Virus record (IMG/VR): IMGVR_UViG_3300020411_000483 | Coordinates: 10,021-74,020 of that record | Strand: one strand, 5' to 3' | Length of the DNA: 64,000 nt | Source of the DNA: a virus | Shown here: positions 8,001 through 57,032 of the stretch, piece by piece | How the letters are laid out: the number at the start of each line of letters is the position of its first letter | Numbering within the stretch: position 1 is the first letter of the stretch | The notes under the pieces: generated by a model | The model's database searches: none | Told to the model about the DNA's origin: nothing | What the model saw: only the letters and a program-made list of their open reading frames with translations | Translations under genes and position numbers: made by a program

Positions 8001-11000
8001 GTCTAAAGTACCTGTCAACTCTGTATTGCCGTAGACTCGTGCCCCGCCACCAACTGCTAGGTTTTTAGCTAGTCCTATACCACCAGAGAATCTTGCAGCA
8101 CCATCAGCAGCATATGATCCTGTTAGAGTTTGCTCTGTGTTATTAGTATGTGTGTTGACACCTGATGTGCCAAATGTATCGTTAATCTGTGTCGCATCAC
8201 CAACGGTTAATGTACCAATAATGTTAGTGTTACCGTTGTCAGTATCAACTTCAAACTTAGTAACAGCAGAACCGTTTTGGACCGTAAGAGTTTTATTAGC
8301 ATCGTTAATTAATACACCTGATGTGATTGTAACTGCTTCATCTACGGTAAGTGTGCCGTCAATAACGGTATTACCAGTTGCAGCAGCAATAGTAAACTTG
8401 TTTGTGCCAATATCAAAGTTTCCATCAATTCCTACAGCACTTGTTACATCTAATGTACCAGCTATTACTGTATTACCATTATCTGAATCGACAGTAAACT
8501 TATCTGCTCCAGCATTATTTTCGATGGTAAACATCTTACCATCACCATTGATGTTAACGTTACTTTGGAAAGTAGCATTACCATCTACATTTAAAGTCGT
8601 ATCAAAATCACCTGCACCATTTACAGTGAGGTCACCTGCAACAACTGTATTACCATTGTCTGTATCAATAGTAAACTTGTCAGCAGATGAATTGTTTTGT
8701 ACTTTAAAGAATTTGTTATCTGCGTTGATAGTAACATTGTCTTGGAATGTTGCTCCACCATCAACGTTTAGAGTCGAATCAAAGTCAACTCCATTTGTTA
8801 CATCAAGAGTACCTTGAATTTCTGTATTACCTGTAGCACCTAGGACACTAAACTTAACTGTGTCTCCAGAGTTTTTCTTACCAACGAAAAGACCTTCGCC
8901 AGATCCTGTAGCACCAATATGTAAATTCTGAGCAATACCTCCACCACCATATACTCTTAGGTTAGAAGTATTGTGTGTAGCATAAGTTGGATTGTAAGCA
9001 ACACTACTACCAACCCTAAACTTATATCTTACCTGCAACCAGTTCCGTAAACCCCAACTCTCTGTTCCACTATCTCTCTGGTTGAAGTTACCATTTAGAT
9101 AGATGTCATTATTAAATAACACATCCTTAGCAAAGTAACCACCACCATCACATCTTAATGCACCATAGTCACTACTCTGAATTTCATAAAGGTTTGTGCT
9201 GTTGTTTAGAGCAACGTTAGGCTCATCAGTTGATTCAAAGTAAACTAAAGATGCTACGTTTAGATTAGCATTAGCATCGATATTACCAGTGTTAGTTAAG
9301 ACACCACCAATCTCAGCATTACCTGTTGTAGTATGGAAGGTAGTTTTAGTTGTGCCACTACCATTCTTTAATTCAAATGTCTTAGAAGCACCTTGGAATA
9401 CAATATTATCATCAAATCTACTTGTAGAGTTGGCACGGAATGTCCCATCTACATCTAAAAGTCCACCAATATTAACTGCTTGTCCAATACCAGCACCACC
9501 TGCTACTACCAAATCTCCAGTAGTATTAGATGTTGAGTTAGTATTTGTTGTAAGTTTTAAATTACCAGCGATGATCCCTGCATCTGTTCCAGAGAATACT
9601 TCTGAGGTATTTGTGGCATTGTAGAGGAAGGAGAATGCTCCTGTATGACCTCCAAGATCAGAGGCCGAATCGTCGTAACCAAAGAATCCAATTCTTGCTT
9701 GAGAGTCATAGTATCTGAATTCAACTCCTCGATCCTTATTGTCGTCCGAAGTTGGAGCAGTATCACCGCCAAGAGTAAGAATAACATCATCCACCTGCAT
9801 AGTAGTGGAATTAACTGTTGTAGTCGTGCCATCTACTTGTAAATCTCCATGTATCCTACAGGTACCAGAGACAGCTCTATCATCACCTGGGTCGAGGTGT
9901 AAAGTAGCACCAGTTGATCCTATGTAATCAGCTTGGAATTTTGTCCCTTCAACATGTACCTTACCATTAGTTCCTTCAGTTGCTTTAATATCAACTAAGT
10001 CTTCTGCTGTAATATTAAGTGTGCTTGATCCTGCACCAGAGTTAGTAACACCTAAATTAAATGTTCTAGCATTACTTGAATTCTGTGTAGACTGAATAGT
10101 GAAGTTTCCATCACCAGTCTTGTCTATAGTTTGTGAAGCCCCTCCGTCGAAGGTAACGTCTGGATCACTGAAATAGGATCTGACGTTGACATCAATCTCT
10201 CCAGCACCACCATCACCCGTATTATTTGCGCCAAACAGTAAAGCACCACTTGTGTTATTAACCTTGACATAGTTAAGATAGTTAAAACCTTTGTTTGCTG
10301 TAGCAGCAGTCTTCTCACTGTCTAACGAGAAGTCTTCCTTCGTATTGCTATCAGAGAAGGATATTTTATTGTTTTGAAGTTGAGTATTGTCAACACCAGC
10401 AGCAGAAATGCTAACATGACCTGCTGCTGATACATCAAAATCTTCTTGAGCAAAGGAAGCGAGTCCTTTTTGTTGTGTTGTAACAGCACCCAAGTATCTC
10501 CACGATCCAGCATCGCTAGTATCTGAATGAGTTGGTGCCCCAGCTCCTGCCGAAATACCCGCAATGGCTTGATAAAGCTTCGATGCGTTAGTAATCTTAT
10601 CGTCTCTGGAATAGGTCGTTGCTGCATTATATGCTGCTGCTGTAGTTCCTTCTACTGCTGTTGCAATAGGAAGTGTCGCTGATGCTGTTAGTCTACCATA
10701 TGCATCAACTGTATAGTTTGTAGCGTTAACAGTCTGTGATCCACCAGCAGATGTTAATGATGCTGCGTTATATTCAGCAGCAGTTACAGCAGTTGTAATT
10801 AGGTCAATGGTTGGGTTTGCTGATATACCACCACCATCTGAAATTTGAATTCTTTGTGCAGTACCAGTGATAGTCCTGGTTGCCATAGTACCAGCAGAAG
10901 TCCTAGAAATTAATCCAGTAGTTGTTAATCCTGCAACAGCAATCAGATCATTATCATATGGTTGAGCAGATGATCCCTCAACTGTACCGTCGAGACCATA

Positions 11001-49781: not shown

Positions 49782-51842
49782 TTAGAAACAAGATTGTGTT
49801 GTAGTGCTGCCAACGTTGGTAACAGTAATAGGATCGAGTGTAGTTGGTGTGCTCGAAGTCTCAAAAATGGTTGGCGTAAGACTATTTAGTGGGATACTGG
49901 TAGGTGGAGTAGTACCAATCGCACCAATGTCAATCGTTGGGTTTATTACACCGATAATAGTATCTGGACTTGGAGTAGGTATTTGAGATGCGTTTGCAGG
50001 AATAATCTGTACAGGAATGTTTAAATCTCCTAATGCAGCAAGGTTTGCAGCAGAAGAATCTACTGTGCCACCTTCAAATACACCGTCTGCATCAGTATCA
50101 ACTGCTGTACCTGCTAATACTCCCAAATTATTACCTGCTGCACCTGTTACATTTGCAGGACCAAAACAGATATCACCAGTTGTATAGTTAACTGTACCAG
50201 CAGAAGAATTAGTAATAACTTTTCTATTACCACTGTTGTAATAAGTTCTTAAGTTTCCAAACCCATCATCCTCGAAATACTGGTCTACAGTAGGACGATC
50301 AGCGAGTCTAAACCTACCAGAAACGATTACAGGCTCTTTGACACAACCATCTGCATTAGAAGTCTTACCTGGAGCACTATCGTAGATAGGAGCACCAGTT
50401 GATATACAGTATGTGTTTGTTTCTGCTGGTTTTGGATTAATATATTTTAGTAGTGAGACTTGAGTCGAAACATCAGAAATACACTTATCTGCAAGTGTTA
50501 TTGCCTTCTGGAATTTCGCAAGACTGAATGAAGAATTGAAGTTGTTAACTTTAGAAGCAACTGCCCACTCATTAATAGCATTTTGAGCATTTGATTCGAT
50601 AGCAGAGACGCTTCTAGCAGAGCAAGCAGGGTCATAAGTGATAAACACTTTAGGATAGACGTAAATGCTCTCAGCATCGGTTACAACGGGTTCAATCGAT
50701 GCCATAGCGTATGCTCTCAACTGTTTAGAGAGGTTTATCTTTGTTGCATCGTTTAATTTAGATCCTGTCTTAGTTTTGACTGCGATGTAGACTTTTCCAT
50801 ATACAGGAGGATATAATTCATCTCCACCATAAGCGACAACGCTTGCCACGTTATCATATATCTTTTGCATGATAACTTCGTAATCCTTTGAAGTAACTGC
50901 ACGATATTGGGCAGAATAGTATCTTGGAGCATTATATTTGATGGATTCAACGCTTTCTTCATCAGAACCTCCGTAGGATGTATTCTTAACTATTACGTCT
51001 ACATCAGATGCAGAATAGTTAACACCATTACTATCAGAGATTAAACCGATAAATGCAAAGCTTGTTACATCATTTGCACCTTTTCCAGCAGTTACAAGGT
51101 ATTCAAGGTCAATAACCTCACCATCAGTTAATTTTCTACCAATTACATCATCACCAAAAGTCAATTCATATCTCATATCCTCTGTTTCGGATAAGAAATA
51201 AACCCTGTCAGTTGCTGTTACATTAGTAACATTTTCTACTTTATTATAAACGTCTGAGCTAGTGCTACTTTCGTTTGCTCTAACACTAACTTTTAGAGTG
51301 GCAATATCTGCATCAGATGTTGGTACCACATAATTCTGTTTAGCAAATGTGTTAACAAGATACGAGAAGTTGATAACGCTACCTTCTTGTATCAATACAC
51401 ATTTTAATGTTGCAATTCCTGTTGTTTGATCAACCTCAGCAGTGAATGGCTCTAGTCTATTCCAAGTGTAATTACCACCAGTAGCAACGGATCCCTTCGC
51501 TAAAGTGACTGAAGCAGGCCAAGCACCAGCAGTTTGATTAGTTTGTATCGCTAATTCCAAATACGCCTTAGAAGCAGTAACAGAATTAGGTGTATAGTTT
51601 AAAAGCTTCGCAATATTGACAATATTATCTCTTACAGTAGATGATGCTATAAATGCCTCATTCATTGACATATTTGCCATGAATGCACTATAATAAGTGT
51701 TATAAGCAAGAGTATCAATTAAATACGACAGACCTGACCCTTCAAAGTCATAATCTGAAAATTCACTACGAGTTCGCAGATATGCCTTGATAGAAGACTT
51801 AATATCTGTAAAATCTAATGCTGTTAAATTATTCGGTTGCAT
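49782..51842 (-). CDS. g6: Baseplate wedge subunit (gp6-like)
   Basis: LDF.DIK.SIK.YLR...EFSDYDFEGSGLS.LID.LAYNTYY; ES.ESIKYNAPRYYSAQYRAVT..DY; YGKVYI. Confidence 0.94.
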   Translation of the reverse strand: MQPNNLTALDFTDIKSSIKAYLRTRSEFSDYDFEGSGLSYLIDTLAYNTYYSAFMANMSMNEAFIASSTVRDNIVNIAKLLNYTPNSVTASKAYLELAIQTNQTAGAWPASVTLAKGSVATGGNYTWNRLEPFTAEVDQTTGIATLKCVLIQEGSVINFSYLVNTFAKQNYVVPTSDADIATLKVSVRANESSTSSDVYNKVENVTNVTATDRVYFLSETEDMRYELTFGDDVIGRKLTDGEVIDLEYLVTAGKGANDVTSFAFIGLISDSNGVNYSASDVDVIVKNTSYGGSDEESVESIKYNAPRYYSAQYRAVTSKDYEVIMQKIYDNVASVVAYGGDELYPPVYGKVYIAVKTKTGSKLNDATKINLSKQLRAYAMASIEPVVTDAESIYVYPKVFITYDPACSARSVSAIESNAQNAINEWAVASKVNNFNSSFSLAKFQKAITLADKCISDVSTQVSLLKYINPKPAETNTYCISTGAPIYDSAPGKTSNADGCVKEPVIVSGRFRLADRPTVDQYFEDDGFGNLRTYYNSGNRKVITNSSAGTVNYTTGDICFGPANVTGAAGNNLGVLAGTAVDTDADGVFEGGTVDSSAANLAALGDLNIPVQIIPANASQIPTPSPDTIIGVINPTIDIGAIGTTPPTSIPLNSLTPTIFETSSTPTTLDPITVTNVGSTTTQSCF

Positions 51843-52258
51843 TATGGTCTCTGTAAGACGAAGGTGATATTCTCAATTACTGGAAGACCAACTATTTGGT
51901 ATTCTAGGTCAACGGTTATAGCGTTGTCATCATAATCAGGTACGCACTCTAGGCTAGTAATCTTTATACGTGGCTCGTGTTGCTGTAATGTATTTAGTAT
52001 CTCACTATGGATCGAGTCAATTAAAAATGGGTCTAACGGCTCAAATAGCATTTGAGATACATTAGAACCAAAATTAGGTTGAAATGGTTTTTCTCCAGGA
52101 GTTGTTAATATAATATTTTTGACCGCTTGTTTTATTGCTTGGTCATTTTTAGTAGGTTGTACGTCTTTCGTAAATGGGTTCTTGGTAAAACCGACGGGAA
52201 TGTCCTTAAACGCTCTCGACTTATTAAATTCCTTACCTGTTATCGGTTTTAATGCCAT
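51842..52258 (-). CDS. g25: Baseplate wedge subunit (gp25-like)
   Basis: AIKQAVKNIILT.PGEKPFQPNFGS...MLFE...EPRI. Confidence 0.93.
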   Translation of the reverse strand: MALKPITGKEFNKSRAFKDIPVGFTKNPFTKDVQPTKNDQAIKQAVKNIILTTPGEKPFQPNFGSNVSQMLFEPLDPFLIDSIHSEILNTLQQHEPRIKITSLECVPDYDDNAITVDLEYQIVGLPVIENITFVLQRP

Positions 52259-52542
52259 TAGACTTCATAGAAAGTATATCTCAAGAATAGTTCCTCCATA
52301 GGACCTATAGACCTAATGGTCTTAACATAATATTTGTTTCCGACTTGATACTTAACACAATTAGGGTTTATGCTATGATTTAGAAATCCACCTAGGGGTG
52401 TTCTGTATATTTCGCCGTTTTCAAGGTAATGTGACATACCAAGCTCTTTGCCTTCGGTTAATTCATATCGTGTGAATATACCTTGTCCTGCTACTGGACT
52501 ATTTTGCACAAAAAGTCCTTCAGGAAGTGCTCTGTAGGTCAC
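52258..52542 (-). CDS. Minimal SET-domain protein (putative SAM-dependent protein-lysine methyltransferase)
   Basis: SET signatures: S.VAGQGIF (GxG), GFLNHSINPNC (RF-NHSxxPN) and I.P.EELFLRY (EL..Y). Confidence 0.82.
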   Translation of the reverse strand: MTYRALPEGLFVQNSPVAGQGIFTRYELTEGKELGMSHYLENGEIYRTPLGGFLNHSINPNCVKYQVGNKYYVKTIRSIGPMEELFLRYTFYEV

Positions 52543-52563
52543 TATTCATAATGTAACTAATTA

Positions 52564-52758
52564 TTATTTATCAGAGAAACGGACACCTTTGCATCCCTCT
52601 TTAGAACAGTAGTATCTTCCTTCACCTTGATTAGGTGTCAAATAGTCAACACCTTCTGCCCATTCATCCATTGCTTCTCTCACAATAGACTTTATTTCAT
52701 TACGAATATACTCTTTCTGCTTTTCTCTACGCTCTTTAATCTTTTTGAAGTTAAACAT
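52564..52758 (-). CDS. Hypothetical protein (64 aa, CxxxxC near C-terminus)
   Basis: TAATG overlap with ho1. Confidence 0.65.
   Translation of the reverse strand: MFNFKKIKERREKQKEYIRNEIKSIVREAMDEWAEGVDYLTPNQGEGRYYCSKEGCKGVRFSDK
52565..52571 (-). promoter_or_regulatory. Late promoter core ATAAATA upstream of SET-g25-g6-g7
   Basis: GATAAATAAT overlapping the upstream stop codon, about 23 nt before the SET start. Confidence 0.6.
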
Positions 52759-53435
52759 TAGTTTCCCCGTAAAAAACCTAATAACACTTTCCAGAATCCT
52801 TTAGTAGCAGATCCTTGAATTTCATCAAATAGGTACATATTTAACCTAAATGCATAATTTGCCTCTGTAATTAGTGCATTTGTTTGAGATTCATCTAAAC
52901 CAAGATTATCTAAAACGTTCCTATAGTTATTCTTAAACTCTTTAGCATCAGGTATCTTACTAAAATCGTAAAACCATAATCCTTCACCTTTAGGTGGATT
53001 AAGTGCTTTTTGAGCAATATTGCATAAAATCTGTCCTCCAGACAAATCACCGATATATCTCGTGTAATGATGTCCTATTAATAGGTAAGGTTCATCATTA
53101 GCAACTTGATTAATTCTATAACAATATGTGTTACATGCCTCAGTAGGTATCTGTAATGCTCTCCAATTAGGACCATAGAAGTATCTAAGGTCTCTTTCTA
53201 AGTTATTAACACGCTCTAACTCACCTTGGAATCCACTTATTATTTTCACCCAAGGATCCTCGGATTTCCTAATTTGCTCCTCCATCGTCTGATAGACGTA
53301 ATAGAAATTAGTCAATAATTGACGATATTGCTCAGGGTCTAACACCCCTTTAAGGAATCCAGAAACAAATTTAGTGTTTTCTGCTGCTGAATGGGACTTT
53401 TTAGTCCCTTCCTTCAATGCTAGTGCTAATCCCAT
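52758..53435 (-). CDS. ho1: Heme oxygenase (ferredoxin-dependent, cyanobacterial type)
   Basis: LKEGTKKSHSAAENT.F (proximal His), HHYTRYIGDLSGGQIL, EANYAFRLNM.LF. Confidence 0.95.
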   Translation of the reverse strand: MGLALALKEGTKKSHSAAENTKFVSGFLKGVLDPEQYRQLLTNFYYVYQTMEEQIRKSEDPWVKIISGFQGELERVNNLERDLRYFYGPNWRALQIPTEACNTYCYRINQVANDEPYLLIGHHYTRYIGDLSGGQILCNIAQKALNPPKGEGLWFYDFSKIPDAKEFKNNYRNVLDNLGLDESQTNALITEANYAFRLNMYLFDEIQGSATKGFWKVLLGFLRGN

Positions 53436-53617
53436 TATTCTGTCTCCGCAGTTTCAAATTCTTCAATTTGGTCAACATACACCTCATTTCCAGCAATGCG
53501 GTATTTGTGACCTCTTTCATCCTCACCAAGATATTCAAGACTATTCTCACCAGAGAAACTATGCTCTCTTAGAACAGCTTGAAGTCTATAGTGGAGCAAA
53601 TCAACGTGTGATATCAT
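53435..53617 (-). CDS. Hypothetical protein (60 aa)
   Basis: Translationally coupled on both sides; LQAVLREH...LEYLG...GHKYRIAG. Confidence 0.7.
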   Translation of the reverse strand: MISHVDLLHYRLQAVLREHSFSGENSLEYLGEDERGHKYRIAGNEVYVDQIEEFETAETE

Positions 53618-53763
53618 CTACCCTGTCCTCTATAACGCTTCTTTGCGTTATTGCGGGAAGTAGCAGACAACTTAGTGTGCATACTTGAGCCTTGTCTAGT
53701 CTTTTTAGGGTTTGGTTGCACATAGTTAGTGGTAATCCATGCACCACCTTTTGCTTTTGCCAT
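53614..53763 (-). CDS. Small, highly basic peptide (49 aa)
   Basis: Not in track: MAKAKGGAWITTNYVQPNPKKTRQGSSMHTKLSATSRNNAKKRYRGQGR. It fills the gap exactly, with an ATGA overlap to the next gene. Confidence 0.75.
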   Translation of the reverse strand: MAKAKGGAWITTNYVQPNPKKTRQGSSMHTKLSATSRNNAKKRYRGQGR

Positions 53764-53765
53764 AG

Positions 53766-54275
53766 TTAATCACCTACGAATACATTATTAGAAGCACCTG
53801 CAATGGTAGAGTAACACTCACCTTCAATACCTCCGTTTAGAGGATCACCGAATCTATTTGCCAATTTTCCCATTATATACACTGTTTTAGTGGTTGCGTG
53901 GGAAACTCGCTTATGTTTACCGCCATCACGGACATCTTCAGAGGTAAGGTACTTACCATTACAGATATCTGGTGGAGGTGGACTCTTACATCCTCCATGA
54001 GCGTGCTTGTTGGTAGTAGAGCAAGGATGGTTAGTTAAAACGTCCTTGTCGATAATCGGACATATGTTGTTTATCAACACAGTCGGATTCTTCGGTGTTT
54101 TAGGTCTCTGTGCTAAGGGATTCCATTTAAGGACGCTATTCTTAGACGACAGAGGTTTCGGACTCGCTTGAGGGCAATTCATAGGACATCCATACGTGGC
54201 ATGTACATGTCCTGTAACTGCTCTTCCGTGTCCTGAGCATTTACCTTTGTAGTAAGCTGCTTTCTGTGCTCCCAT
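53766..54275 (-). CDS. PAAR-like spike tip protein (gp5.4-like), Cys/His-rich
   Basis: CSGHG, TVLINN..P....D.L..H.C, TVYI.GK...R.GDP, C...IAGAS.NVFVG. Confidence 0.8.
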   Translation of the reverse strand: MGAQKAAYYKGKCSGHGRAVTGHVHATYGCPMNCPQASPKPLSSKNSVLKWNPLAQRPKTPKNPTVLINNICPIIDKDVLTNHPCSTTNKHAHGGCKSPPPPDICNGKYLTSEDVRDGGKHKRVSHATTKTVYIMGKLANRFGDPLNGGIEGECYSTIAGASNNVFVGD

Positions 54276-54290
54276 TATACTCCTTTCAGT

Positions 54291-57032
54291 TTAAATGTCA
54301 AATGGATTGCCGTAGGCTTCCACACACTTACTCATATTTAGGGTTGAAGCAGTCAAGTCATTCAATATTTGTAGTTGACCATATGCAGTCCAGTCTTGAG
54401 CACCAGGACCACGTATGCCAGACATACTATAAGATGTGGTAGTTGTGCCACCATTTGCGTTATTCGTTGTTCCACCTGCTCCTGGAGTGGGTGGAGGACA
54501 TGCATTTGAACCAGTACAACCACTTTCCTCAACCTTACAACCTATGGTTACCTTAATCAACATGTCCGTAGTGCTAGATGCACGATACTGACGCATGTGG
54601 TATTTGGTTAATTTGGATGCGTGCGGTAAATCTGCAAACCTACGTTGCACTGTGCTAACCAATGTTCCTGCATAATTGAGGTATTCTGGGACACTTTCCT
54701 GTGCTAATGCCTTACATTGCTGTTCAATACTCGCTAATCGTGTCTCTTCCGCTTCTTTTGTCTTCTTTTTCCAGTTAGCCATCTCTTTTTTATAGTCTTC
54801 ACCAACTACAGATTCATCAGTAATCGCATCTTTTACATCATTTACACCTTCAATACCGTATTTTGTGACAATTTCCCTGTATCTGTCTACCTTATCCTTA
54901 GAATAACGTCTTTGAGCTAGCATATAGATGTCATTTTTCGCTAAATCCATCAAAGATTCGGAATTTGGTTGTGGTGCAGTGGTAGATTTGCTCTCATATG
55001 ACCTTTGACGCATCTCATCAACCTGTTTATCCTCAGCACGATCTAGTGCGTTAATCATTTCAGGGAAACCACGACTTGCACGTAACTTCTCATAGAAACT
55101 TTCTATGCCAGTTTCTGATGCATCTATGCCATCTGTAATCTTTAACGTGTCTATTCTGTGCACATTCTGTACAACTGCCCTAGGCTCGTCTGTAGCAACC
55201 GAATATCCACTTCCTGCATTCTTTACTGTTATGTTAGTAACGACTCCATCTGCCCATTTACCGACTGCTGTAGCACCACTTCCACCTCCTCCACTGAATG
55301 TAACAGTAGCATCAGCAGAATATCCACTACCGTGGTTAGTAATTCTGACACGATTAACGTAACCACCTTGTCCACTTACCTGTGGAGTGACTTCCGCTAC
55401 TGCTGTTGCATTACCAGAAACAGTTACGGTAGGTGCAGAAGTGTATCCTATACCTGGATTTGTGACATCAATGTAAGAAATTGCTCCATTTGTTACCGTA
55501 GGCTCTAATTCTGCCTCTTTTCCTATGCTCGCCATAGGTGTAGTGCAGTTAAGTTCAGGTGGTGCACCTAGTAAATGCCATCCTGCTCCACCCGAATATA
55601 CATTAAATCCAGTAATAGTGCCATTAGTGATAATTCCTTCCGCAATTGGCTGTTTTAAGGTATTATATACGTCTGGAGACCCTCCATCTATGCTTTCTGT
55701 GGTATATTGGACGCTTTTATCGTAAAATTCGTATAATCCCATCAAACATGAGTGTGTTTTGACCCCTTTTCCAGCAAAAACAGTGATTTGGTGTGCCCTA
55801 TTGCTCGTATATTGCGTATTATAGGCAAAATCGTTGCCATTTCCGTCCAAATAGACCAAATGACGCTGAAAATTGTCAAATTCGGTGTGAAAAACCTTAG
55901 TTATGGTATGTCCGTTAATAGTATCACCCTCACGCATGGCATCAAACCCTGCTTGCGGTGCTGTTCCTTCTATAGGACCAACTGCTGATACTTTTAAGTC
56001 TATAGTTAATACAGAAGTAGTAAGGTCATCATGTGTATGAGTATAGTTTAATGTATAGGTATCATTGACTGCATAATTCTGTCCAGGATCCATTAATTCT
56101 AAAAATGTCCATTTAGTACCAGTGAATACACTGTTATCATAGTCATAGACAGCTTCTAGTCTTACTTTAACTCTCAGTCCTTGTTTTATACCACTTTCTA
56201 GTGCTGCACCTTCAAATATTATAATAGTATTCAGATCATCATCTCCTGTCTTCCAAGGATTCTGAGAAGTTACTACAGGAAGTCCTGAATAGGTCGATGC
56301 ATCCCATACGTCTACATCTATACTATCAGGAGTGTAAACAAAGTTAACATCAGTAACGCCATTAGGCAAGACTGTGGAAAAGGCATCATACTTGAATACA
56401 ATTTTATTAGAAAGGGTGCCAATACCAAATACAGTAGGGTAAGGACAATCGGGGTCACCAGTTTCGTCTCCTTCGGGGTTTTCGTATCTACAAATCGCTT
56501 CTTTGGGTGTAGCACTGAATCCTGTGCAAGGATGACACTGAGAAGTTGTTACAGTCTCATCTGCATCACCATTAGTTGCACCAGAGGATGCTGCTGTTTG
56601 GGTTTCAATGTAAAAACAAGGATATCCTATATTACCACCATTGGTACCCATGTCAAATAGGTAACAAAACCATGTGTCCGAATTCATTGCTTGAAATGAT
56701 AGTCGTGACGGCACGTGGTCATAGATAACAGTCCTTGGTGGACTACAAGCTATATCTCTGGTTATTCTTCCACAATAAGAACTAGCACTACCTGAGAAAC
56801 CACCTCCTGCTGGAGTAGCAACTATTGTAGAACCATACATTACAGCATCTATTGCCCAACCTGGTACATTAACACCAGCATTAAAATCTGATGGATATGC
56901 TCTTAATGTAAAGTCTGCTTTCGTTGCTGTTTCAGGTACATAAGCATGGTTATGCAAACCACTGCCTATAACATCACCAGCAGTTTGTCTACACAAGTCA
57001 TTAGAGTCATTATGACAACCTAAAACACCCAT
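54291..57032 (-). CDS. Putative virion structural protein (913 aa)
   Basis: Cys-rich termini; repeats of the I.V.N.G.GY...PTVT / GGGGSGATA type shared with g7; adjacent to the PAAR gene. Confidence 0.7.
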   Translation of the reverse strand: MGVLGCHNDSNDLCRQTAGDVIGSGLHNHAYVPETATKADFTLRAYPSDFNAGVNVPGWAIDAVMYGSTIVATPAGGGFSGSASSYCGRITRDIACSPPRTVIYDHVPSRLSFQAMNSDTWFCYLFDMGTNGGNIGYPCFYIETQTAASSGATNGDADETVTTSQCHPCTGFSATPKEAICRYENPEGDETGDPDCPYPTVFGIGTLSNKIVFKYDAFSTVLPNGVTDVNFVYTPDSIDVDVWDASTYSGLPVVTSQNPWKTGDDDLNTIIIFEGAALESGIKQGLRVKVRLEAVYDYDNSVFTGTKWTFLELMDPGQNYAVNDTYTLNYTHTHDDLTTSVLTIDLKVSAVGPIEGTAPQAGFDAMREGDTINGHTITKVFHTEFDNFQRHLVYLDGNGNDFAYNTQYTSNRAHQITVFAGKGVKTHSCLMGLYEFYDKSVQYTTESIDGGSPDVYNTLKQPIAEGIITNGTITGFNVYSGGAGWHLLGAPPELNCTTPMASIGKEAELEPTVTNGAISYIDVTNPGIGYTSAPTVTVSGNATAVAEVTPQVSGQGGYVNRVRITNHGSGYSADATVTFSGGGGSGATAVGKWADGVVTNITVKNAGSGYSVATDEPRAVVQNVHRIDTLKITDGIDASETGIESFYEKLRASRGFPEMINALDRAEDKQVDEMRQRSYESKSTTAPQPNSESLMDLAKNDIYMLAQRRYSKDKVDRYREIVTKYGIEGVNDVKDAITDESVVGEDYKKEMANWKKKTKEAEETRLASIEQQCKALAQESVPEYLNYAGTLVSTVQRRFADLPHASKLTKYHMRQYRASSTTDMLIKVTIGCKVEESGCTGSNACPPPTPGAGGTTNNANGGTTTTSYSMSGIRGPGAQDWTAYGQLQILNDLTASTLNMSKCVEAYGNPFDI

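Follow-up and report, generated by a model that had tools for sequence, protein, structure and literature searches.

SET-domain lysine methyltransferases are known in eukaryotes, a few bacterial pathogens, one archaeon and the chloroviruses. The closest characterised relative of the protein described here is vSET (A612L) of Paramecium bursaria chlorella virus 1 (PBCV-1; PDB 1n3j and 3kma), which is packaged by the virus, for which dimerisation is known, and which a review of the chloroviruses calls the smallest histone methyltransferase (PMC7019647). Among prokaryotic members, Go1-SET of Methanosarcina is cited in PMC10117894 as methylating the DNA-associated protein MC1-alpha. A search of 8.4 million full-text papers found no characterised bacteriophage SET protein and no description of the one considered here, a 94-amino-acid protein (mini-SET) encoded beside the baseplate gene gp25 of a marine cyanophage. 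The single paper that names both SET domains and cyanophages does so in passages that have nothing to do with each other. The stretch analysed (the window) comprises 64,000 nucleotides, positions 10,021 to 74,020, of IMG/VR record IMGVR_UViG_3300020411_000483. This record is a 74-kb cyanomyovirus fragment with an estimated completeness of 42%, and the cultured phage nearest to it in DNA sequence is Synechococcus phage S-MbCM6 (about 74% over gp25 and gp6).

Mini-SET is a genuine minimal single-domain SET protein. It is probably functional, as a late-expressed protein methyltransferase dependent on S-adenosylmethionine (SAM), with a host target somewhat favoured over a baseplate protein. Three features of the window define the gene and its immediate setting.

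52258–52542, minus strand: mini-SET gene, 94 amino acids, GTG start, predicted SAM-dependent protein methyltransferase (Pfam SET; phrog_28741, E-value 1.3e-33; AlphaFold2, Foldseek and VIA-align)
52256–52260, minus strand: overlap of the mini-SET stop and the gp25 start as TAATG, with one shared base (TAA at 52260–52258, gp25 ATG at 52258–52256)
52565–52572, minus strand: GATAAATA, a late-promoter-like core 22 nucleotides 5′ of the mini-SET GTG, matching T4 TATAAATA at 7 of 8 positions and overlapping the stop of a 64-amino-acid open reading frame (ORF)

The GTG is the earliest possible start of mini-SET, because the in-frame codons directly 5′ of it are TGA and ATA, and homologues begin at the same residue (M/V-T-Y-R-A-L-P in the homologue alignment). 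An ATG lying 8 nucleotides 5′ of the GTG was rejected as an alternative start, being out of frame. In the metatranscriptomes of two studies there are contigs that cover the gene at 99–100% identity, one of them spanning 52346–52558 with no mismatch. As contigs with possible DNA carry-over, these lend weak support, give no transcript ends, strand or level, and are uninformative where they leave parts uncovered.

The assignment to the SET family is carried by profile, motif and structure comparisons. The Pfam SET profile (PF00856) scores 35.7 bits over residues 41–89 against a gathering cut-off of 22.4 (E-value 1.2e-8), and it is present in all 42 full-length homologue clusters. In an alignment of 29 sequences, the motif I residues G19-Q20-G21 are invariant and align with G15-Y16-G17 of vSET. 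Around motif III (N55-H56-S57-I-N-P60-N61), residues G51, G52, F53, N55, H56, P60 and N61 are invariant and S57 is conserved in at least 90% of the sequences, as are E84, L85 and Y89 of motif IV (E83-E84-L85...Y89). AlphaFold2, run from the 29-sequence alignment, predicts an all-beta structure with one short helix, with a predicted local distance difference test score (pLDDT) of 90.9 and a predicted template modelling score (pTM) of 0.79. A Foldseek search of the PDB with this model returns 209 matches at E-values of at most 1e-3, and among the matches listed all are SET or PR domains (MLL1, vSET, EZH2, SETD8 and SET7/9), with template modelling (TM) scores of 0.75/0.68 for the vSET structure 3kma. 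VIA-align superposes 85–88 residues on PFL0690c, MLL1 and vSET with Z-scores of 11.7–11.8 and root-mean-square deviations (rmsd) of 2.0–2.2 Å. The best PDB match of the family profile is vSET (E-value 3.5e-6), with residues 8–89 aligned to vSET residues 4–105 and Tyr89 falling on vSET Tyr105. The 2.0 Å superposition on vSET extends through residue 89 and is consistent with the SET pseudoknot, but it is no topological test.

The initial annotation had proposed a minimal SET protein from the motifs GxG, NHSxxPN and EEL..Y, stripped down in the manner of vSET, and had named the Pfam SET family and AlphaFold as checks and the lack of a SET fold as one outcome that would count against it. The Pfam score above gathering, the conserved motifs and the fold matches bear this proposal out, and what AlphaFold2 returns is a confident SET fold. 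The likeness to vSET also holds, in that the protein is single-domain, finds vSET as its best PDB profile match and is even shorter.

Mini-SET is under strong purifying selection. The median pairwise ratio of nonsynonymous to synonymous substitution rates (dN/dS) is 0.17 (375 pairs from 83 SET coding sequences), and SET is better conserved than its neighbours, with median identities to the window, over 62 loci, of 57% for SET, 43% for gp25 and 36% for gp6. A search of 5.8 billion proteins returns 44 clusters, nearly all of 93–109 amino acids, and an exhaustive profile search returns 1997 clusters (at 50% identity) with E-values of at most 1e-3, 603 of which reach 1e-10 or below. In IMG/VR, more than 590 contigs carry a relative, and the Atlas clusters of the phage mini-SET are 100% Viruses. 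The carriers among 50,697 deposited phage genomes are only the cyanomyoviruses P-RSM6 (protein YP_007675168) and P-SSM7 (YP_004325031), the pelagiphage Kolga (a siphovirus) and one single-virus assembly. The protein is annotated as hypothetical in each of the three named phages; proteins of this kind have already been tagged ‘SET domain-containing’ by automatic pipelines. Five studies dated 2014–2024 yielded marine metagenomes that contain DNA nearly identical to positions 51000–53500 of the window (at least 81% of the words sampled), which indicates a persistent, widespread phage lineage.

Related SET genes encoding 100–121 amino acids, with 31–38% identity to the phage family and passing Pfam SET, are chromosomal and lie in conserved contexts in metagenome-assembled genomes (MAGs) of Porticoccaceae, Flavobacteriaceae and Saccharibacteria. 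This places the phage family within a broader group of bacterial mini-SETs. The neighbourhoods of the bacterial genes, namely fabA-fabB and redoxin-ssb in Porticoccaceae, a pyrroloquinoline quinone dehydrogenase in Flavobacteriaceae and mixed housekeeping genes in Saccharibacteria, offer no hint of a substrate. In five Porticoccaceae/Cellvibrionales MAGs, fabA, fabB and a SET gene of 106–110 amino acids share one strand, with redoxin, ssb and a major facilitator superfamily transporter on the opposite strand. Fusions among the relatives include a 363-amino-acid protein with an N-terminal Amidoligase_2 domain (a 7-member cluster, on contigs of up to 106 kb) and a 213-amino-acid protein with a thioredoxin/glutaredoxin domain. 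The amidoligase is a predicted peptide-modifying enzyme.

Within the genome, mini-SET is an accessory gene of marine T4-like cyanophages, located where the spike, PAAR-like and orf49 genes meet gp25 and gp6. Its neighbours in the window, in the order of their reading on the minus strand, are as follows.

54291–57032, minus strand: 913-amino-acid baseplate protein (phrog_719, 5e-249), with its own TAAATA 25 nucleotides 5′ of the start
53766–54275, minus strand: PAAR-like spike-tip protein, 169 amino acids (phrog_281 ‘PAAR motif’, 1.9e-21)
53614–53763, minus strand: orf49, a 49-amino-acid Lys/Arg-rich core cyanomyovirus protein (phrog_516, 2.2e-21)
53435–53617, minus strand: 60-amino-acid ORF, part of the variable cargo between orf49 and mini-SET
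52758–53435, minus strand: heme oxygenase (Pfam Heme_oxygenase, 1.3e-67), part of the cargo block
52564–52758, minus strand: 64-amino-acid ORF, unassigned by Pfam and PHROGs, part of the cargo block between orf49 and mini-SET (52564–53617)
51842–52258, minus strand: gp25 baseplate wedge/sheath-initiator protein, 138 amino acids (Pfam GPW_gp25, 1.1e-15; phrog_261, 2.9e-66)
49782–51842, minus strand: gp6 baseplate wedge protein, 686 amino acids (Pfam Gp6-like_1st, 2.4e-16)
26199–49775, minus strand: 7858-amino-acid virion structural protein in the gp7 position (first 1200 amino acids: phrog_701 and phrog_19630, E-value 0; also phrog_2885, a baseplate wedge subunit)

Neither Pfam nor PHROGs assigns a function to orf49 or to the 60- and 64-amino-acid ORFs. 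The heme oxygenase, an auxiliary gene of the ho1 type, occupies the same gap between orf49 and gp25 as SET and is shared with other loci, at 66–76% identity in five of them and at 31% in two.

Synteny was assessed in 120 distinct loci of IMG/VR that extend far enough downstream; these are the nearest relatives of two queries, and the resulting fractions are valid for that neighbourhood rather than for all 590 contigs. Directly downstream of SET stands gp25 in 92 of the 120 loci, with a further 4 having it within 1.2 kb and 24 having none, and the gp25-adjacent placement holds down to 34% gp25 identity. Loci whose SET is closer to that of the window also tend to have a closer gp25 (rho 0.58, p 8e-7), a pattern that fits mostly vertical descent at the gp25 site. 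S-MbCM6 has the same backbone of baseplate protein, PAAR, orf49, gp25 and gp6 with nothing between orf49 and gp25, and it lacks SET; given this bare junction, both SET and the block with the heme oxygenase are cargo in that gap. A core gene of the baseplate would be expected wherever the module occurs, whereas SET is absent from S-MbCM6 and rare among the 50,697 records, against orf49 in 446. In about 20% of the loci, as well as in P-SSM7 and Kolga, SET stands in other, unrelated contexts: after nrdB in P-SSM7, in a siphovirus genome in Kolga, and, in the IMG/VR loci, in the interval between primase and tail fibre, beside 2-oxoglutarate-Fe(II) (2OG-Fe(II)) oxygenases and a transaldolase, beside sugar-modifying enzymes, or near terminase.

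The initial annotation had described the gene as translationally coupled to the baseplate operon, with g25, g6 and g7 downstream, and had named a lack of conserved position beside g25 as another outcome that would count against its proposal. The gene does lie beside gp25, both in this phage and in most of the loci surveyed, but it is accessory, with few cultured carriers, and in about a fifth of the loci it is placed elsewhere. Pfam confirms gp25 and gp6; the giant protein is a candidate for g7 by its position.

Two further observations concern these contexts. In three loci away from the baseplate genes, SET is flanked by a 2OG-Fe(II) oxygenase gene or overlaps its stop; such an enzyme was not taken as a functional partner, since genes of this kind are very common in cyanophage variable regions and the association may be chance. 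One IMG/VR contig is 100% identical to the window in gp25, 99% in gp6 and 92% in SET, which there has an ATG start and a wholly different upstream region. These differences place a recent recombination boundary in or beside the 5′ end of SET.

The motif TAAATA, contained in the putative late promoter, occurs 30 times in the window against 77.5 expected, a 2.6-fold under-representation. The coding strand holds 22 of the 30 copies, and 7 of these 22 are placed 19–34 nucleotides 5′ of an ORF start, including those of mini-SET (22 nucleotides) and the 913-amino-acid baseplate gene (25 nucleotides). The depletion, together with the placement before ORF starts, argues that the motif is more than chance. 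The surviving copies make a usable late-promoter map of this uncultured phage. A hairpin at 52596–52581, ahead of the promoter motif, was considered as a terminator and is too weak to call.

Two architectures can be distinguished among the 81 gp25-adjacent loci. In 17 of them, the window included, SET and gp25 overlap or are separated by at most 2 nucleotides, and TAAATA lies within 50 nucleotides 5′ of SET in 15 of 16 loci. The remaining 64 have a gap between SET and gp25, of 21–41 nucleotides in nearly all; TAAATA is found in the gap in 64 of 64 and 5′ of SET in 1, and the SET start overlaps the orf49 stop in many. The constant feature is thus the predicted gp25 late promoter, with SET immediately on one side of it or the other. 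The late-promoter core noted at the outset therefore stands as a prediction, being non-random and kept across loci of the same architecture, and the TAATG overlap can be read directly from the sequence. Translational coupling to g25, which had been proposed along with them, can be upheld for the window's clade; with a promoter motif between the two genes in 64 of 81 loci, it is specific to that clade.

Two matches to sigma70-type promoters, each at 12 of 12 positions, lie within 5.8 kb in this region. One (TTGACA-18-TATAAT, 51665–51694, plus strand) is antisense in the 5′ part of gp6 and directed across gp25 and SET. The other (TTGACA-16-TATAAT, 54301–54274, minus strand) has a −10 box that overlaps the start codon (ATG) of the PAAR-like gene. 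These matches may represent antisense or early promoters, or chance.

In this phage, mini-SET would be the first gene of the late gp25–gp6 transcription unit, transcribed from the ATAAATA 22 nucleotides upstream, and the TAATG overlap would permit translational coupling to gp25. By homology to vSET, MLL and EZH2, SAM would be bound via GxG and NHSxxPN, and the methyl group would be passed, as in the wider family, to a protein lysine entering a channel closed by Tyr89 of EELxxxY. The target is somewhat more likely to be a conserved host protein (nucleoid-associated, translational or similar) than a baseplate protein, because relatives occur in myovirus, siphovirus and other phages and in bacterial chromosomes.

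Several points weigh against this account. The motif II tyrosine (YxG) is unrecognisable in mini-SET, and the corresponding strand carries an invariant Ser37-His38 instead. About 16 residues of the SET-I insert are missing relative to vSET, just 5 residues follow Tyr89, at low model confidence, and the C-terminal 14 residues of vSET have no counterpart. Given the gap in SET-I and the short, low-confidence C-terminus, the protein may need a partner or a dimer to complete its substrate groove. The late-promoter function of GATAAATA derives from motif statistics, making it a predicted promoter, and the preference for a host target, itself only somewhat more likely, draws solely on the variety of genomic contexts.

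The second choice of target is a protein made together with SET by the phage itself, the adjacent basic orf49 peptide and virion proteins being the candidates. Methylation of orf49, baseplate or other virion proteins could then tune assembly, stability or resistance to host proteases. The orf49 family (44–49 amino acids) is found in 446 phage records, is better conserved than gp25 and is always positioned between the PAAR-like gene and the gp25 junction. Its core, PKKTRQG...TK.SATSRN.AKKRYRGQG, is nearly invariant, with lysines K20 and K42 invariant. In 40 of 116 loci no more than 60 nucleotides lie between the end of orf49 and the start of SET, and the start and stop codons often overlap as GTGA or ATGA. 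Co-expression of SET with the wedge genes, as the motifs suggest for the window's clade, would also suit a phage target. A co-fold of SET, SAM and orf49 scored 0.00; it was run without controls and counts neither for nor against binding. Against such a target, orf49 is a core gene in 446 records while SET is found in only three other cultured phages (P-RSM6, P-SSM7 and Kolga), so orf49 is independent of SET; and phages that lack orf49 or gp25, as well as bacterial chromosomes, also carry SET. Modification of phage proteins is a fairly unlikely alternative.

It is unlikely that mini-SET is a packaged effector, made late, packed into the tail lumen or spike region of the virion and injected along with the DNA so as to methylate a host protein early in the next infection, as chlorovirus vSET and T4 Alt would suggest. 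PBCV-1 both encodes and packages vSET (PMC7019647), late-type motifs precede SET or the unit that contains it, and the location between PAAR/orf49 and gp25 is constant in 77% of the loci. These arguments are offset by the roughly 20% of loci, together with P-SSM7 and Kolga, in which SET lies away from structural genes, and gene position is by itself weak evidence for packaging. A more elaborate version is more doubtful still: mini-SET would be the smallest natural SET methyltransferase, found in marine phages, made late, loaded at the spike or baseplate as vSET is packaged, and methylating a lysine of orf49 or, after injection, a nucleoid or translation protein of the host. Were this true, it would be the first case of a phage encoding a system for protein-lysine methylation, and would parallel in bacterial viruses the ‘epigenetic’ takeover of hosts by other viruses.

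SET folds can also methylate histidine, as SETD3 does. The replacement of the motif II tyrosine by the invariant Ser-His pair and the truncated substrate groove could accordingly indicate an acceptor other than lysine, or other than protein; alternatively, the protein may bind SAM so as to deplete the free pool and weaken host defences that depend on it. Both are very unlikely, as mini-SET keeps Tyr89 and the arrangement of NHSxxPN and ELxxxY that is typical of lysine methyltransferases, and sequestration would be stoichiometric and, by a late protein, too late for anti-restriction. Least likely of all is a catalytically inert SET-fold protein whose role is in the structure or assembly of gp25 and the baseplate, which the coupling to gp25 in the window's clade and the very small size with truncated SET-I insert and C-terminus might suggest, but which leaves unexplained the (near-)invariance of cofactor and catalytic motifs across more than 50% sequence divergence, the promoter motif that splits SET from gp25 in 64 of 81 loci, and both the absence of SET from most cyanomyoviruses with the same baseplate and its presence in non-baseplate contexts.

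The mini-SET family is abundant in ocean viromes and its members are smaller than vSET. If active, mini-SET would define the minimal catalytic SET core, and phages of Prochlorococcus, Synechococcus and SAR11 would use protein lysine methylation in infection; the cultured carriers P-RSM6 and P-SSM7 would then make it a tractable entry point. If inactive, the gene would still be of use in marking a stable site of insertion at the late promoter of gp25.

Compared with the described systems, mini-SET most resembles vSET. Both are viral, single-domain proteins without a pre-SET or Cys-rich post-SET region; they superpose with a Z-score of 11.7 and an rmsd of 2.0 Å over 85 residues, and GxG, NHSxxPN and the catalytic tyrosine align. 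They differ in length, vSET having 119 amino acids and mini-SET 94 (25 fewer), and share about 18–24% identity. The hosts of mini-SET phages are bacteria without histones, and H3K27 therefore cannot be its target. MLL1/KMT2A, EZH2, SETD8 and SET7/9 have the same fold and C-terminal motifs (Foldseek E-values of about 2e-6, query-normalised TM scores of 0.70–0.73, Z-scores of 11.5–11.8), and phmmer aligns their NHSxxPN...EELxxxY stretch with mini-SET. These eukaryotic domains, however, are the catalytic parts of large histone methyltransferases that have several domains, depend on complexes and contain SET-I and post-SET regions, whereas mini-SET is free-standing.

The small prokaryotic SET proteins, comprising Go1-SET and the uncharacterised ones of Porticoccaceae, Flavobacteriaceae and Saccharibacteria, are likewise small and free-standing, in organisms without histones. 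The phage proteins are shorter (typically 93–98 amino acids), viral and fixed at a junction of baseplate genes. In its genomic behaviour, mini-SET is comparable to the auxiliary genes of cyanophages, such as the heme oxygenase of the same gap, in that both are present or absent among close relatives, occupy the interval between orf49 and gp25 and use neighbouring promoters. It differs from such cargo in being far more stable in position, always nearest gp25 and co-varying with gp25 in identity, and in its predicted role, which is protein-modifying rather than metabolic.

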